From an uncultured Gemmiger sp. (GTDB lineage Bacteria > Bacillota > Clostridia > Oscillospirales > Ruminococcaceae), in NCBI RefSeq assembly GCF_944388145.1, contig NZ_CALXHQ010000003.1: 32,000 nucleotides of DNA; one strand, 5' to 3'. Positions 4,021 to 9,628 of the stretch are shown piece after piece; position 1 is the stretch's first letter; the number at the start of each line of letters is the position of its first letter. The translations under genes and the position numbers were made by a program. The notes under the pieces are model-generated. The model was not told the DNA's origin. It was given only the letters and a program-made list of their open reading frames with translations, and ran no database searches.

Positions 4021-4889
4021 TGGATAATCGTCCCATTGGCGTGTTTGACAGCGGCCTGGGCGGCCTGACAGCGGTGCGCCAGCTGCGCCAGGTGCTGCCC
4101 GGCGAGGACATCGTCTACTTTGGCGACACCGGCCGGGTGCCCTATGGCTCCCGCGGGCGGGAGACCATCATCCAGTACGCCCGGCAGGACATCGCGTTCC
4201 TGCTTTCCCAGGATGTGAAATTCATTGTGGCAGCCTGCGGCACGGTCAGCTCCACCTATCCGCCGTCCGAATCCAGCCATCTGCCGGTGCCCTTCACCGG
4301 CGTGGTTGGGGCCACCGCCCGCTGCGCCGCAGCAGCCACCCGCAACGGGCGCATCGGCGTGATCGGCACCCAGGCCACCGTGCGGTCGGGCAGTTATCAG
4401 GCGGTGCTGCGGCAGCTGGTGCCCGGGGTCCAGCTGTTTGCCAAGGCCTGCCCGCTGTTTGTGCCGCTGGTGGAAAACGGCTACGTGAACGACGGCAACC
4501 CGGTGACCAAGCTGGTGATTGCCGATTATCTGACCGAGCTTCGGGATACCGGGATCGACACGCTGATCCTGGGCTGCACCCATTACCCGCTGCTGGAGCG
4601 GATGATCGGCGAATTTATGGGGCCGGATGTGGCATTGATCGACCCGGGCAAATCCACCGCCAACGCGCTGGAGGACGCCCTGGGGGCGCTGGACCTGAAA
4701 AACAGCCGGGACACCGGCGGCGCGGTCCGCTTTTACGTCAGCGACTCCACCGAGGGCTTTGCCGAACAGGAGGCGCTGTTCCTGGGCAAGTACGGCGGCG
4801 GCCCGGTGGAACAGATTGCCATTGAACAGTACGCCTGGCCGCCGGCCGCCGCCAGCCAGGCCAACAGGCAGGGAAAAACAAATGGATGA
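4020..4889 (+). CDS. murI: Glutamate racemase
   Basis: ATG 4020 overlaps the ddl TGA (TGATG). MDNRPIGVFDSGLGGLT..., with catalytic Cys contexts AACGT and LGCTHYP. Confidence 0.92.
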   Translation: MDNRPIGVFDSGLGGLTAVRQLRQVLPGEDIVYFGDTGRVPYGSRGRETIIQYARQDIAFLLSQDVKFIVAACGTVSSTYPPSESSHLPVPFTGVVGATARCAAAATRNGRIGVIGTQATVRSGSYQAVLRQLVPGVQLFAKACPLFVPLVENGYVNDGNPVTKLVIADYLTELRDTGIDTLILGCTHYPLLERMIGEFMGPDVALIDPGKSTANALEDALGALDLKNSRDTGGAVRFYVSDSTEGFAEQEALFLGKYGGGPVEQIAIEQYAWPPAAASQANRQGKTNG

Positions 4890-5325
4890 AAAGTATCTGA
4901 TCACAATCAAGGGCACCATGGAACAGGGCGGCCACAGCGAAACTGTGGAGCTGATGACCCACGGCGCCTTCCTCAAACGGGACGGCAACTTCTTTATTAT
5001 GTACAAGGAGACCGAAGCCACTGGTTATGCCGGTTGCACCACCACCGTCAAGGTGGGTGAGGACGGCCGCCGGGTGGCCATGCTGCGCTATGGCAAGGCA
5101 CCCAGCCAGCTGATCATTGAAAAGGGCACCCGCCATCTTTGCCACTACGAAACCGGTTACGGCGCCATCTCGCTGGGGGTGGCTGCCGATGTGATCGAGC
5201 CGGAACTGGACGAAAGCGGTGGCCGGGTGAAGTTCAGCTACACGCTGGATTCCGGCAGTGAGGATTTTATCAGCCGCAACCTGGTGGACATCACCGTGAC
5301 CCCGCTGCCAGAGCCGGCACAGTAA
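4882..5325 (+). CDS. DUF1934 / YwiB-like beta-barrel protein
   Basis: ATG 4882 overlaps the murI end by 8 nt. The small protein MDEKYLITIKGTMEQGG... sits directly upstream of argS, as ywiB-argS does in Bacillus. Confidence 0.7.
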   Translation: MDEKYLITIKGTMEQGGHSETVELMTHGAFLKRDGNFFIMYKETEATGYAGCTTTVKVGEDGRRVAMLRYGKAPSQLIIEKGTRHLCHYETGYGAISLGVAADVIEPELDESGGRVKFSYTLDSGSEDFISRNLVDITVTPLPEPAQ

Positions 5326-5409
5326 TTTTCCGCCGGGCCGCAGCCTGGCCCGGCCATAAGGTTTGAACAATCCTGACGATGTAAAAACGTAAAAAGGAGA
5401 GCGTTTTCC

Positions 5410-7170
5410 ATGACCGATTACCGCAACTATAATCCACGTCAGTCTGCGCTGGACGCGGCCCGTTCCCTGCTGACCACCGCCGCCAACGCCGCGATGGACT
5501 CCGGCGCGCTGCCCAAGACCGAGCTGCCCGCCTTCAATGTGGAGATCCCCGCCGACCCCAAAAACGGCGATGTGGCCGCCAACCTGGCCATGGCAGGCGC
5601 CCGCACCTTCCACAAGGCTCCCCGCCAGATTGCCGAAGCTGTGGTGGGGGCCCTGGACCTGACCGGCAGTCCCTTTGCCCGGGTGGAAATCGCAGGGCCC
5701 GGGTTCATCAACCTGTACCTGGGCAGCGAGTGGTTCACCTCGGTGCTGCGGGCCGCCTGCGCCGGGCAGGACTACGGCCGCACCAACGCCGGCCAGGGCA
5801 AGCGCTACAACGTGGAATTTGTTTCCGCCAATCCCACCGGCCCCATGCACATGGGCAACGCCCGCGGCGGCGCCCTGGGTGACTGCCTGGCCGCCTGCCT
5901 GGACTGGGCGGGCTACGATGTGACCCGCGAGTTCTACATCAACGACGCCGGCAACCAGATCCAGAAATTTGGCAAGAGCCTGGCCATCCGTTACCTGCAG
6001 CTGTACAAGGGCGAGGAGGCCTGCCCCCTGCCCGCCGAGTGCTACCAGGGCGCCGACATTATTGAGCGCGCTAAGGAGTTTGCCGCCGTCCACGGCGACA
6101 GCTATGTGGGTGCCGACTTTGAGGAGCTGAAATCCGCCATCATTGCCGATGCCTTGCCCAAGAATATCGCCGGCCTCAAGCGCGACCTGGGCAAGTACCG
6201 CATCGAGTACGATGTCTGGTTCCCCGAGAGCACCCTGCACGAGAGCGGCGCAGTGGAGCAGATTGTCCAGCTGCTGCTGGACAAGGGCGCCTGCTACAAA
6301 GCCGAGGACGGCGCCATCATGTATAAGAGCGCCCAGTACAGCTCCAAGTACGGCGTTGCCAACAAGAAAAAGTCCGATGACGGCACCGAAGAGGAGGCCA
6401 AGGACGAGGTTCTCGTCCGCGCCAACGGCGTGCCCACCTACTTTGCCGCCGATATTGCCTACCACTACAACAAGCTGGCCGTCCGCGGGTTCGAGAAGGC
6501 CATCGACGTGTGGGGCGCCGACCACCACGGCCATGTGGCCCGCATGAAGGGTGCCATGGACGCCATCGGCCTGGACGGCAGCCGCCTGGACGTGGTGCTG
6601 ATGCAGATGGTCAACCTGATCCGCGACGGCAAGCCTGTCCGCATGAGCAAGCGCACCGGCAAGGCCATCACCCTGACCGACCTGCTGGACGATGTGCCCA
6701 TTGATTCCGCCCGCTTCTTCTTCAATATGCGGGAATCCAGCTCCACGCTGGACTTTGACCTGGACCTGGCCGTCAAAAACGACAGCGAAAACCCGGTCTA
6801 CTACGTGCAGTACGCCCATGCCCGCATCTGCTCTATCCTGAAAAAGCTGGAGAGCGAGGGCGTGACCTTCCGCGGGCTGGAGGCTGCCGACGCCGCCGTG
6901 CTGACCGACCCCGCCGAGCTGGCCCTGCTGCGGCTGCTGGCCTCCTACCCGGCCGAGATTGCCGCGGCTGCCGAGAAGTACGACCCCGCCCGCATCACCC
7001 GCTTTGTCATCGACCTGGCCAGCGCCTTCCACCGCTTCTACGGCGCCTGCCGCATCCTGGGTGCCGGGGACAGCGTCCAGCAGGCCCGCATTGCCCTCTG
7101 CCTGGGCGTGCGGGATGTGATCCGCAACGCGCTGACCATGTTCAAAGTCAGTGTTCCCGAAAGCATGTAA
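5410..7170 (+). CDS. argS: Arginine--tRNA ligase
   Basis: 586-aa ORF with a class I HIGH-type motif (ANPTGPMHMGNARG), an MSKR(T)G KMSKS-like motif and the DALR C-terminal region. AAGGAG RBS. Confidence 0.96.
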   Translation: MTDYRNYNPRQSALDAARSLLTTAANAAMDSGALPKTELPAFNVEIPADPKNGDVAANLAMAGARTFHKAPRQIAEAVVGALDLTGSPFARVEIAGPGFINLYLGSEWFTSVLRAACAGQDYGRTNAGQGKRYNVEFVSANPTGPMHMGNARGGALGDCLAACLDWAGYDVTREFYINDAGNQIQKFGKSLAIRYLQLYKGEEACPLPAECYQGADIIERAKEFAAVHGDSYVGADFEELKSAIIADALPKNIAGLKRDLGKYRIEYDVWFPESTLHESGAVEQIVQLLLDKGACYKAEDGAIMYKSAQYSSKYGVANKKKSDDGTEEEAKDEVLVRANGVPTYFAADIAYHYNKLAVRGFEKAIDVWGADHHGHVARMKGAMDAIGLDGSRLDVVLMQMVNLIRDGKPVRMSKRTGKAITLTDLLDDVPIDSARFFFNMRESSSTLDFDLDLAVKNDSENPVYYVQYAHARICSILKKLESEGVTFRGLEAADAAVLTDPAELALLRLLASYPAEIAAAAEKYDPARITRFVIDLASAFHRFYGACRILGAGDSVQQARIALCLGVRDVIRNALTMFKVSVPESM

Positions 7171-7210
7171 CCTTCCCTGCCGGCGCCGCAAAGCCGTCTG
7201 ACAAATAAAA

Positions 7211-7246
7211 CCGCCTGCCGGATTTGCTGCCGGCAGGCGGTTTCTG
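7211..7246. terminator. Intrinsic terminator after argS (bidirectional architecture)
   Basis: Perfect 11-bp stem CCGCCTGCCGG (7211-7221) / CCGGCAGGCGG (7230-7240) followed by TTTCTGTTT. An A-run precedes it, so it could also terminate minus-strand transcripts. Confidence 0.85.
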
Positions 7247-7384
7247 TTTGCGGATACACCGCAACAAATATAGTATAGCACAGTTAGATATGGATTATCA
7301 ACCCCTAAATATGCACAAATAAACCACCGCAAGGTTGTCGGCTTTGCGAATAGACATCTGCCCTGGGGGATGGTATAGTATAGT
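7247..7384 (+). promoter_or_regulatory. Two promoter-like boxes sharing the sequence TATAGTATAG(T)CACAG
   Basis: Box 1 is TATAGT at 7269-7274, preceded by TTTGCG 16 nt upstream. Box 2 is an extended -10, TGgTATAGT, at 7371-7379. The 10-mer TATAGTATAG occurs at 7269-7278 and 7374-7383, each time followed by CACAG. Confidence 0.4.
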
Positions 7385-8800
7385 CACAGAAAGAAAACAG
7401 CCGGAGATAAGGAGTACAGAAACTCCAAGAGCCCGCTTCCCAAAAGGTTCGGCAAAAGAGTTTTGAACATCTTTTCTAAAGGCTTAAGGTCAAGTTCCTG
7501 ACAAGGTTTCTTTCAAAGGAAGTACAAAAACTTCCAAAATCAAATCTTCTGGTCGGTTCCAGAAAACGGGTTTCACACAAGGAAAACGGAATTCCTGAGA
7601 AAGATCTTCTTCGAGAAGGGAAACAAGAACTTTCTGATAAGTCCCTTAAAAAAGGATGAACGGAAAGGAATTGAAGCCGCTTGATAAAGGTCGAAGATCA
7701 GAAAAGTAAGGTTTCAAATGTGGAAGGTCCGGATTGAAATGGAAAAGCAGATGAATTTGGGAAGGGTTCAGCGAAAGCTGGGTGTACTGAAGCAAAGAGA
7801 CGGCAGTGAAACACCTTAAAAGATCCAGAAAAGAAAGACAAAACGCCGAGGGTTTTTGGCAAGCAGTAGAAAAAGAGGCGTGCCGGCAGGATTCGTAAGA
7901 AAGGAGGCTCAGGCCAATGGCAAACTTTAAAGATCCCATTTCTCACCGGCAGGCCTGGGCTTGCTGAGACGAACTGGACCACATCAAGAGCCGCAGGTCA
8001 TAACCTGTAAAGAAGCTACCAATTACTGATGAGTCGGTTCAGAAAATCGATCAAGATGCAATCCCAGGGCCTGTCAAAATCGACAGCTTGATATAGATTA
8101 GATGGAGACGAATGAGTAGGGAAAACTGAAAATCCGCCAGACCCCAACCAATAAAGTTACGCTCAAGAAAGCGTTTCAATCGGCAATATGGGTTTCATCT
8201 AACCAAATAAGGAGTTACTCCAATGTACTAGAGTAAGAGGAATTTTCCTCAGCATCGACCCGTAAAAGTTACCGCATTTTGCAAGATTTCTTCCCGGTTC
8301 CACAGATGCAAGGGATGTGAAGTATCAACCGTTGGCCCCCTGGTTTCAGGCCGGAACAACTCCCAGGTAATCCGAGATAGTTTCAAAGACACCGCAGGGT
8401 AAAACGTTTCAAGGAAAAGGTCAAATACAAACGGTATCTTCTCCCTCAGGCAAATAACGAACGACAGGGCGCTGTTTTAGATGATCCACAGGATACGTTC
8501 CGATTGAAAAGAATGGCCCAAGTAACCATAAGTTTCATGCTCGTTTTCCAGGTACTTTCCAATCGCTCCCCATAAAGGGAATGGAATGGTTTGGTTCCGA
8601 AAGCAACAGGAATGGTCTTTAGGTAAACATCGAAATTTCAGCATTTTCAAAATGACAGGTAATGATCCACAATGTAACCGGAAGAGGTGGCTCATGAAAA
8701 TGAGTACCAGGTCCGAAAAATAGTGAATCACAGGTATGAGGCTATGACTCCGATCATGTAAGACCGGCGGGGTACACAGAAATGTGTGCCCCGCCTTTTT
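7280..8800 (+). ncRNA. Candidate very large noncoding RNA of unknown class. The 5' end is uncertain, about 7281 or about 7386. The 3' end is at the terminator.
   Basis: No plus-strand ORF of 60 aa or more between 7171 and 8785. GC is about 37-45% by hand count of several 60-nt lines, against 60-68% in the flanks. The 5' half is purine/A-rich. Promoter-like boxes lie upstream and a strong plus-strand terminator lies at 8766-8800. Eight copies of GTTTCA are on the plus strand. GNRA-capped hairpins (CAGC-GAAA-GCTG 7769-7780, CTCAT-GAAA-ATGAG 8691-8704). Confidence 0.45.
8766..8800 (+). terminator. Intrinsic terminator closing the ORF-free island
   Basis: 13-bp stem GGCGGGGTACACA / TGTGTGCCCCGCC (one G-U pair) with a GAAA loop, followed by TTTTT (8796-8800). 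Confidence 0.85.
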
Positions 8801-8824
8801 GGTTGCAGCCGGGTGGCCTTTTCC

Positions 8825-8853
8825 TTGCATAATTGGCCTGGGCGCTCTATAAT
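8825..8853 (+). promoter_or_regulatory. SigA-type promoter of the aspartate racemase gene
   Basis: TTGCAT (8825-8830), a 17-nt spacer, then TATAAT (8848-8853). Confidence 0.65.
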
Positions 8854-8896
8854 AGGGATATCTTTCAGCACTGCCCAGGGCAGAGGAGGTTGCGGT

Positions 8897-9628
8897 ATGG
8901 CACAGACGGAAAAGCGCCCGGTACTGGGCGTATTGGGCGGGCTGGGTCCCGCGGCAAGCTGCTACTTGTATCAGATGCTCATTGACCACACGCCGGCAAG
9001 CCGGGACCAGGACCACATCGATGTGGTGATCTCGTCCCGGGCATCCACCCCGGACCGCACCGCCTTCATTGTGGGTCAAAGCAAAGAGGACCCCTTTGCC
9101 GTAATGGAGCAGGACTGCCGCAGCCTGGTGGCCTATGGCGCCACGGTGCTGGCCATCCCCTGCAACACCGCCCATTATTTTTACGACCGGCTGGCCGCCG
9201 CACTGCCGGTGCCGGTTTTGAACATGCCCCGCCTGACGGTGGAAAAAGCCATCCGGCTGGGCTGCCACAAGCTGGGTATCCTGGCCACCGAGGGCACCAT
9301 CCTGTCCGGTACCTACCAGCTGATGTGCCGCCAGTTCGGCCTTGATTGGGCAATCCCCTGCCCCGCACGCCAGCAGGATGTGACCGAGATCATCTACGGC
9401 CAGATCAAGCAGGGGCACCGCGCCAACATGGCACAGTTTCATGCTGCTGCCGACGATCTGCGGCAGCAGGGCTGTGATATGGCCGTGCTGGGCTGCACCG
9501 AGCTGAGCCTGGTCAAGCGAGACGAACATCTGGGCCGCTTTTTCCTGGACAGTACCGAGGTGCTGTGCGAGGCCTCGCTGCGGGCCTGCGGCGTGGACCC
9601 CATCGGCTTTGATGACCTGAAAGGATGA
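8897..9628 (+). CDS. Aspartate racemase (Asp/Glu racemase family)
   Basis: GAGGAGG RBS followed by ATG 8897. MAQTEKRPVLGVLGGLGP..., with two catalytic Cys contexts, CNTAHYF and GCTELS. Confidence 0.88.
   Translation: MAQTEKRPVLGVLGGLGPAASCYLYQMLIDHTPASRDQDHIDVVISSRASTPDRTAFIVGQSKEDPFAVMEQDCRSLVAYGATVLAIPCNTAHYFYDRLAAALPVPVLNMPRLTVEKAIRLGCHKLGILATEGTILSGTYQLMCRQFGLDWAIPCPARQQDVTEIIYGQIKQGHRANMAQFHAAADDLRQQGCDMAVLGCTELSLVKRDEHLGRFFLDSTEVLCEASLRACGVDPIGFDDLKG

Follow-up and report, generated by a model that had tools for sequence, protein, structure and literature searches.

We found that the DNA between argS and a downstream racemase gene of an uncultured Gemmiger sp. (RefSeq assembly GCF_944388145.1, contig NZ_CALXHQ010000003.1) contains a real and conserved element that appears to be undescribed and matches no Rfam family. 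The stretch analyzed, referred to below as the window, comprises 32,000 nucleotides (nt), and all positions are counted from its first letter. With a probability that we put at about 0.55, the element is the gene of a previously undescribed family of structured, ribosome-engaging RNAs, similar to dual-function RNAs, which occurs in Gemmiger/Subdoligranulum and Faecalibacterium and would act through the loading of ribosomes in cis. This reading is carried by helices that covary and by a fixed order of strong, unsequestered ribosome-binding sites, each followed by one of a series of open reading frames (ORFs) of 16, 2 to 4, 9, and 5 codons. A first-pass annotation of the same DNA had proposed a giant noncoding RNA at this place. 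The idea is partly supported, in that the element has the makings of a stand-alone structured RNA, yet one that is neither intrinsically giant nor free of coding-type signals.

The interval had been singled out as an ORF-free island of low GC content in which argS and the next gene lie 1.7 kb apart. The argS gene (5410-7170), whose product matches TIGR00456 with 372 bits, lies 1,726 nt away from the Asp/Glu-type racemase gene, which starts with an ATG at 8897, and the longest plus-strand ORF within 7171-8785 has 45 amino acids (aa), below the 60 aa used as the limit in the earlier screen. The GC content is 0.395 to 0.51 within the interval versus 0.59 to 0.72 in the flanks, and the purine enrichment noticed in the 5' half is greatest at 7600-7900 (GC skew of +0.40 to +0.42, AT skew of +0.31 to +0.38). 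Both terminators that had been read as bracketing the interval, the one of argS and the one of the element itself, are present with long paired stems (Table 1). Two promoter-like boxes had been proposed at the 5' end. One of them is matched by the promoter scan at 10 of 12 positions (7351-7379, TAGACA-17-TATAGT with TG upstream), but near 7269 the scan gives only a minus-strand match (7301-7272) and no plus-strand promoter. From the promoter and the terminator, a primary transcript of about 1,415 nt (7386-8800) is predicted.

Using ArgS as bait we fetched 80 genome loci, in which the interval is conserved 3' of argS in 22 Gemmiger/Subdoligranulum-type genomes and present in a divergent form in about 10 Faecalibacterium genomes. 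A metagenome scan baited with the invariant 3' motif GAGGCTATGACTCC gave at least 120 contigs, mostly from the gut, all of them true homologs. Genome loci and metagenome contigs among the matches listed make up 116 unique copies, and 39 representatives of all classes were used for counts of invariance. The unique copies are 0.64 to 1.6 kb long, with modes near 650, 850, 1050, and 1300 to 1550 nt. Their conservation is a mosaic of sharp blocks (7340-7445, 7876-8100, 8195-8262, and 8680-8800), in which 20-nt bins reach 86 to 97% identity and which are 80 to 97% identical across genera, separated by stretches that are gapped in most relatives. In the window, nhmmer profiles of these blocks match 7341-7444, 7880-8099, 8195-8261, and 8680-8800 and nothing else.

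The compact form of about 640 nt retains every conserved feature and is not found beside argS, and several Gemmiger-type copies also have no argS upstream; on this ground we rejected an obligatory linkage to argS. The promoter box is kept in both genera, Gemmiger and Faecalibacterium, and CTGCGAATRGAC occurs 117 times in all the DNA fetched, 115 of them upstream of a copy of the element. A regulon sharing this box was likewise rejected, since the box is found essentially only here. Considering that the conserved promoter box is exclusive to the element and that copies exist away from argS, the element appears to be a self-contained gene, which agrees with the stand-alone transcription unit proposed earlier: the 116 unique copies keep promoter box, body, and terminator as one set, in some cases away from argS. 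The description as giant does not hold. The core of the family is about 640 nt, and the 1.4 kb of this copy results from poorly conserved, lineage-specific insertions (7440-7875, 8100-8195, and 8265-8680). The core lies within the size range of OLE, GOLLD, ROOL, and raiA, which it had been thought to exceed.

The first-pass annotation had recognized no known RNA family in the interval, and neither do covariance models. Rfam 15 gives no match at gathering level in the 32-kb window and no match inside the element of four divergent homologs (L131, L054, L029, and L026), and the matches at E <= 10 in 7100-8950 are at chance level (the best, COG3943, has 23.7 bits versus a gathering score of 71.8). 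Membership in OLE, GOLLD, ROOL, raiA, HEARO, or another Rfam 15 family was therefore rejected. Among the CsrB/RsmZ sponge models only CsrC gave a match, at chance level (11.6 bits versus 61). Transfer-messenger RNA (tmRNA) was rejected as well, since ARAGORN found neither tRNA nor tmRNA in the window, Rfam found no tmRNA, and the ORFs of the element have a Shine-Dalgarno sequence (SD) and an ATG. A search of the literature accessible to searching found no published description of the element; the supplementary tables of large surveys of small proteins or structured RNAs could hold it.

The island might also be a decayed protein gene, as the first-pass annotation had considered, a remnant of a mobile element, or a neutral spacer, and its GC content of about 0.42 in a genome of 0.62 would suit such an origin. 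However, there are 12 to 26 stops in every frame, at least three of them TAA in each, so that no recoding opens the island, and both an alternative genetic code and a pseudogene were discarded. Pfam found nothing at E <= 0.1 on the ten longest stop-free segments but one chance match below its cutoff. A mobile origin was discarded too, given that a blastn search of 50,697 phage and 72,556 plasmid records detected nothing similar. Together with blocks that stay similar across genera and covary, this makes all three origins extremely improbable.

Evidence for a conserved structure comes from helices that we label P1 to P5 (Table 1). Sets of 500 shuffles and slid partners served as controls, and the covariation counts are uncorrected for phylogeny. 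P1 has 8 pairs, paired in 100% of 29 sequences, with 3 double-sided changes, a number reached by 1 of 500 shuffles. In P2, the fourth pair is G-C in 13 sequences, A-U in 10, and unpaired in none, and the covariation score of the hairpin (0.274 versus 0.148 in shuffles) was reached by 0 of 500. P3 has 14 pairs that are 97.8% paired and 18 cells with double-sided changes (5.6 in shuffles; 0 of 500), such as A-U in 9 and G-C in 20 sequences or U-A in 8 and C-G in 19, and slid partners are only 29 to 50% paired. The terminator has 59 such cells versus 18.7 (0 of 500). P1, P2, P3, and the terminator, long-range helices included, thus exceed their shuffled and slid controls within what would be a stand-alone transcript, which is the kind of covariation that the first-pass annotation had suggested looking for. 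P4 and P5 are about 99% paired with few changes.

In 31 Faecalibacterium-type sequences, aligned independently, the equivalent of P3 has 19 pairs and compensatory changes of its own, and its strands differ in sequence (ACAGACUGUCGGG..UUCGCU with AGCGAAU..GAACAGUCUGU). At the place of the nested P4 and P5 there is also a hairpin of another sequence (UGGGU/ACCCA, CGGG/CCCG). This replacement of the helix sequence between genera is a stronger structural argument than the covariation counts. P1 is predicted to close a 5' domain that tolerates insertions, and P3 to be a long-range helix of 14 to 19 bp that closes the central domain. Since P1 encloses P2 and the whole purine-rich expansion, the latter acts as if it were inserted into a domain that is closed: positions 7500-7800 are gapped in 40 to 85% of relatives, and the equivalent of the expansion measures only about 20 to 170 nt in L021, L013, L018, and L026. 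Of two near-identical hairpins noted earlier, both are found where they had been placed, but only the first (P2) is conserved and covaries; the second (7518-7535) sits in a stretch that is gapped in 50 to 85% of 22 aligned relatives. The minimum free energy (MFE) of the compact form has a z-score of -4.3, and that of 7386-8100 one of -3.5. RNAalifold on the 3' domain, with a cross-class alignment, gives only a 3-bp stem inside the invariant motif. Two other pairings were discarded: one between the invariant 3' motif and the 5' end, which by eye has 4 to 5 bp and is uncompensated between classes, and a local hairpin that RNAalifold predicts to sequester the first SD and AUG and that covariation does not support (127 of 500 shuffles).

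The word noncoding fits the element less well. The most invariant positions of the family coincide with the translation signals of micro-ORFs that retain their frames and stops, and these ORFs had escaped the first-pass annotation because its screen had a lower limit of 60 aa. Most of the positions shared by at least 95% of the representatives belong to SDs, ATGs, and stops, GAAAGGAG among them. There are 3 to 8 SD-like motifs per RNA, and the spacing between SD and ATG is optimal, at 8 to 10 nt. In P2, GGAG changes to GGAA with compensation, whereas the GGAG of the ORF modules never varies, even where CUCC, with which it could pair, becomes CGCC.

The 16-codon ORF, preceded by a perfect SD, is intact in 113 of the 116 unique copies. 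Its start and stop vary by ATG/GTG and TGA/TAA swaps, L039 has lost a whole codon, and 16 codons are kept in both genera despite indels (the peptides are MANFKDPIHHRRAWAC versus MVDMEPAQYAQTVGVR). The substitutions of L013 are conservative (N/K, F/V, K/E, D/E, and I/V). However, the GCT/GCC variants and the R/Q variants CGG/CAG covary with 8061 and 8072, so that part of the apparently synonymous variation and of the coding-like signal is due to RNA pairing; for this reason we regard the translation of the 16-codon ORF as likely but unproven. Three metagenomic copies have the ORF broken, L105 by a 2-nt insertion and L182 and L186 by deletions of the ORF end and part of P3; either misassembly or decay of the copies could account for this.

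ORFs of 2 to 4 codons are the most universal ones. The CCNATGTAC core of the mini-ORF module is present in 116 of 116 unique copies, once or twice in each, and the layout of a minigene (SD, AUG, one sense codon, and stop) is found here as AAGGAG-N8-ATG TAC TAG at 8209-8231. The 39 representatives contain 47 SD-led two-codon ORFs versus 1.7 +/- 1.3 in dinucleotide shuffles, a 27-fold excess. Their second codon is TAC (30), ATT (9), or TTC (4), and their stop TAG (36), TAA (10), or TGA (1). If the first stop is lost, a second one always comes in frame no more than four codons on, and stops in tandem (TGA TAA, TAG TAA) are common. The hairpin of the module covaries.

Counting from the longest in-frame ATG, the next ORF has 9 codons in 23 of 32 distinct contexts. 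Frame and length are retained although the interior is free to vary (L105 lacks exactly one codon), and the codon that follows GAAAAA is a stop in all 32 contexts (TAA in 14, TAG in 12, TGA in 6), never TGG. Translation of the last ORF, of 5 codons, appears doubtful, because its nearest GAGG lies 2 nt from the ATG and its stop is missing in L013, L019, and L022.

Faecalibacterium-type copies, which hold up to four two-codon ORFs, have an additional SD-led ORF of 12 to 13 codons before the mini-ORF module (L131 6775-6850, L054 8228-8285, and L029 8385-8445), in two sequence groups (MKKAFVRNVLFE / MMKAFIRIPVFE and MIRRFCTRPISTI / MKRFCTRPISII). We saw no clear counterpart of it in Gemmiger-type copies. 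In the 12-codon ORF, first-position replacements among V, I, and L are conservative (MKKAFVRNVLFE, MMKAFIRIPVFE).

Several observations weigh against a ribosome-engaging RNA. Both its transcription and its translation are deduced from sequence alone, and the helix counts carry the lack of phylogenetic correction mentioned above. In this copy, the 3' half (8101-8800) has an MFE z-score of -1.1, with no excess thermodynamic stability. Between genera, the 16-aa peptide is almost entirely different, the pairing of its codons with P3 weakens the coding signal, and the 9-codon ORF is absent from one Gemmiger subgroup (L006-type). Furthermore, the CCA before the ATG and the TAC second codon of the mini-ORF are conserved beyond the needs of translation, which could reflect a binding site for protein or RNA. 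Some of these points would suit a purely noncoding structured RNA, a sponge or scaffold in which the SD and AUG motifs are not translated but are binding sites (for the 30S subunit, the 3' end of 16S rRNA, or an RNA-binding protein) or tertiary elements; the first-pass idea would then hold but for the size. The extreme nucleotide conservation, synonymous sites included, agrees with this, as do the ORF variants compensated in P3, the motif GAGGCTATGACTCC without any synonymous variation, and a module similar to AAGGAG...CUCCAAUG that recurs without a start codon in hairpin P2. We nevertheless consider a noncoding RNA unlikely, since structure does not predict the upkeep of frames and stops: three interchangeable stop codons at one place, tandem stops, deletions of whole codons in L039 and L105, a constant 16 codons across genera, optimal SD spacing, and the V/I/L replacements of the Faecalibacterium-type ORF.

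The micro-ORFs could instead make the transcript an ordinary polycistronic mRNA for small bioactive peptides of 16, 9, and 12 aa, for instance signaling or antimicrobial ones, with a structure that merely stabilizes the message. Conserved SD-led ORFs, the conservative substitutions of L013, and peptide sequences specific to each genus, as is typical of signaling peptides, would be in keeping with it. However, the most universal ORFs have 2 to 4 codons and are unable to encode a functional peptide, and more than 85% of the transcript lies outside ORFs and yet has conserved covarying helices. The peptides, read from their sequences, are hydrophilic and show no signal or leader features. No gene for export, modification, or a receptor co-occurs, the neighbors vary with the context, and no partner gene of any kind was found across the element neighborhoods compared. 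A message for peptides is thus quite improbable.

A ribosome-engaging RNA of this kind would act through ribosomes loaded in cis. Translation of the 16-codon ORF would have to melt P3, because codons 11 to 16 are the 5' strand of the helix and the stop codon comes directly after, and a ribosome at that stop would sit on the helix; ribosome traffic may in this way toggle the central domain between a closed and an open state. The two-codon ORFs, which cannot yield a useful product, would be sites of ribosome landing and release that sense or consume translation capacity, and ribosome binding there would probably protect the long RNA. Such a molecule would behave as a dual-function or translation-sensing RNA, not as an inert noncoding RNA or an ordinary mRNA. 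Of possible interaction sites, the best candidate is the invariant and apparently unpaired GAGGCUAUGACUCC beside the terminator, and the invariant single-stranded motif GAGGCTATGACTCC (8738-8751) is a candidate seed for pairing with targets. More tentatively, and as an idea we hold possible although on the improbable side, the element might represent a new class of bacterial RNA, a micro-ORF array riboregulator, in which the signal is not a peptide but the loading and release of ribosomes on two-codon and other tiny ORFs within a conserved fold. It would either sense global translation capacity through a ribosome-driven opening of P3 or catalytically tax the translation apparatus (initiator tRNA, tRNA-Tyr, release factor 1 at UAG, and peptidyl-tRNA hydrolase), setting the growth state of bacteria that count among the commonest commensals of the human gut.

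Tiny ORFs, alternative helices, and a terminator also recall leader-peptide attenuators, and the whole element could be a very long leader in which translation, notably of the last ORF, decides how much transcription runs on into the gene that follows; with a ribosome at the stop 8759-8761, the 5' arm of the terminator would be covered. This reading fails because different copies precede different genes: in the window a racemase gene that has a -10 of its own, in L054 a T-box-regulated gene, and elsewhere other genes or orientations, with some copies near neither argS nor a racemase gene. The strong promoter of the element, moreover, is kept in all contexts. We rejected a leader-peptide attenuator on these grounds and consider it very improbable.

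Dual-function RNAs such as Staphylococcus aureus RNAIII/delta-haemolysin, Escherichia coli SgrS/SgrT, and Bacillus subtilis SR1/SR1P and SR7/SR7P (reviewed in PMC12612679; for SR7, PMC7834092) are what the element works most like. It shares with them the plan of a stand-alone transcript from promoter to terminator and a conserved structure with a short SD-led ORF that partly overlaps a functional RNA segment. However, it has four to eight ORFs in a fixed series, some of 2 codons, where they have one; it is much longer; its peptide is unconserved between genera; it has no known base-pairing target; and it is related to them neither in sequence nor by covariance model.

The element also contains formal two-codon minigenes and resembles the large RNAs OLE, GOLLD, and ROOL in size and phylogenetic pattern, and it is a member of none of these groups, because the covariance-model tests are negative and there is neither a tRNA-like domain nor a fixed downstream gene. 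Known minigenes, such as bar of phage lambda (AUG AUA UAA/UGA), stand isolated in phages or operon leaders and act on a neighboring gene or become toxic when peptidyl-tRNA hydrolase is limiting. Those of the element have the same layout, with the SD at optimal spacing (ATG TAC TAG here, ATG ATT TAA/TAG in Faecalibacterium), but are universal parts of a chromosomal structured RNA, in 1 to 4 copies and with a preference for a TAC second codon and a TAG stop. Further published minigenes are those of axe-txe (PMC8708949) and of the LEE1 leader (PMC3262186).

With OLE, GOLLD, ROOL, raiA, and HEARO, whose functions are unknown or have only recently been proposed, the element has in common a large, conserved, phylogenetically restricted structure, an intergenic place in Firmicutes, and variable insertions in a conserved scaffold; unlike it, they are not known to be organized around ribosome-binding sites and micro-ORFs, and it matches none of their models. 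Like tmRNA it is a structured RNA with a short frame meant for ribosome entry, but it has no tRNA-like domain, and its several ORFs have a canonical SD and AUG. The STAB-SD of cryIIIA (GAAAGGAGG) is a ribosome-binding 5' stabilizer of Bacillus mRNAs; it belongs to the untranslated leader of an ordinary protein-coding gene, and no start codon comes after it. The first SD of the element is the same perfect 9-nt sequence, and by analogy it is plausible that ribosome binding at repeated SDs protects the long RNA. In contrast to STAB-SD, each SD of the element has after it a start codon that opens a maintained micro-ORF, and a protein gene is absent.

Table 1. Predicted features of the element and its upstream boundary, by position in the window
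Feature	Position	Strand	Remarks
argS intrinsic terminator	7208-7251	+	Perfect 14-bp inverted repeat 7208-7221/7230-7243, then T-rich run; upstream boundary, outside the element
Element promoter	7344-7379	+	Family-invariant box (C/T)TGCGAATAGACA holding -35 TAGACA; 17-nt spacer; extended -10 TGgTATAGT
Predicted transcription start	7386	+	Placed from promoter and terminator
P1, 5' strand (GAA...GCCGG)	7393-7404	+	Pairs with 7883-7894
P2 hairpin, GGAGT-ACAGAA-ACTCC	7411-7426	+	Covaries
Hypervariable purine-rich expansion	7440-7875	+	Within P1; holds hairpin 7518-7535 and most GTTTCA copies
P1, 3' strand (CCGGC...TTC)	7883-7894	+	Pairs with 7393-7404
Shine-Dalgarno sequence GAAAGGAGG	7899-7907	+	Perfect 9-nt complement to 16S 3' end; 9 nt before ATG
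16-codon ORF, MANFKDPISHRQAWAC	7917-7967	+	ATG 7917, TGA 7965-7967
P3, 5' strand	7948-7964	+	Codons 11-16 of the 16-codon ORF
P4	7977-7985/8028-8039	+	Nested in P3
P5 hairpin, CAGGT-CATA-ACCTG	7993-7998/8003-8008	+	Nested in P3
P3, 3' strand GCAATCCCAGGGCCTGTC	8058-8075	+	Pairs with 7948-7964
Mini-ORF module	8195-8262	+	SD AAGGAG 8209-8214, 8-nt spacer, ATG TAC TAG 8223-8231, hairpin 8237-8250
SD GAGG and 9-codon ORF, MKMSTRSEK	SD 8684-8687, ORF 8694-8723	+	GAGG-N6-ATG
Invariant motif GAGGCTATGACTCC	8738-8751	+	Overlaps the 5-codon ORF; invariant in Gemmiger and Faecalibacterium
5-codon ORF, ATG ACT CCG ATC ATG TAA	8744-8761	+	Ends 4 nt before the terminator stem; translation doubtful
Element intrinsic terminator	8766-8800	+	13-bp stem 8766-8795, GAAA loop, T5

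Downstream of the element, the consensus promoter that the first-pass annotation assigned to the next gene has a perfect -10 (TATAAT, 8848-8853), but its -35 (TTGCAT) matches at 3 of 6 positions and the promoter scan did not call it. The gene itself (8897-9628) had been named an aspartate racemase; it does match the general asp_race subfamily (TIGR00035, 176 bits), but the best score is that of the cysteate racemase CuyB (NF052483, 203 bits with a cutoff of 190). Two long minus-strand ORFs that run antisense over argS and the racemase gene (4738-7332, 864 aa, and 8477-9529, 350 aa) are typical artifacts of high-GC coding DNA and not genes.

Within the element, GTTTCA occurs eight times on the plus strand of 7511-8650 (e.g., 7569, 7711, 8173, 8192, 8343, 8380, 8406, and 8532), with about 0.4 expected from length alone, and its complement TGAAAC once. 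It was rejected as a repeated binding motif of the family, as relatives carry 0 to 4 copies, most of them none, and the enrichment is limited to this lineage. A repeat search inside the interval found no tandem array, only short families at chance level. At 25-36 the window holds a copy of the promoter box with one mismatch (CTGCGGATAGAC); there are 2 such matches in the window versus 0.25 expected, and this one may be due to chance.

In L040 (Candidatus Faecalibacterium intestinavium), the promoter box and 5' end occur once more (CTGCGAATAGACA-17-GGTATAAT-AAAGCCACAGACAAGGAAGTACAG) on the minus strand, at position 646 of the reverse complement, opposite argS and upstream of it, and this copy is cut by the end of the locus; such a position shows that the element has moved relative to argS within Faecalibacterium. 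In L054, also Faecalibacterium, a T-box leader (9204-9470; 88.4 bits versus a gathering score of 93, E = 6e-18) follows directly after the element terminator, so that the downstream gene there has a riboregulator of its own. Ribosomal protein L10 leaders were matched on the minus strand of L029 (656-798, 52 bits) and L054 (700-839, 37 bits), about 5 to 7 kb upstream of argS in these Faecalibacterium loci and unrelated to the element.

In the gut of humans and animals, Faecalibacterium and Gemmiger/Subdoligranulum rank with the bacteria that are most abundant and most associated with health; their RNA biology has hardly been studied. The element is a single-copy, strongly conserved gene in them, and probably a strongly expressed one judging by its promoter. 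It joins covarying long-range helices with maintained frames of 2 to 16 codons, and it escaped Rfam 15; screens for ORF-free islands of low GC content can thus reveal genes missed by the annotation pipelines for proteins and RNAs. To our knowledge, no physiological role has been described for conserved chromosomal two-codon ORFs. If the engagement of ribosomes is true, the family would be a natural system in which to ask how translation remodels the structure of trans-acting RNAs, whether minigenes serve physiologically, and how long untranslated RNAs are stabilized in Firmicutes.

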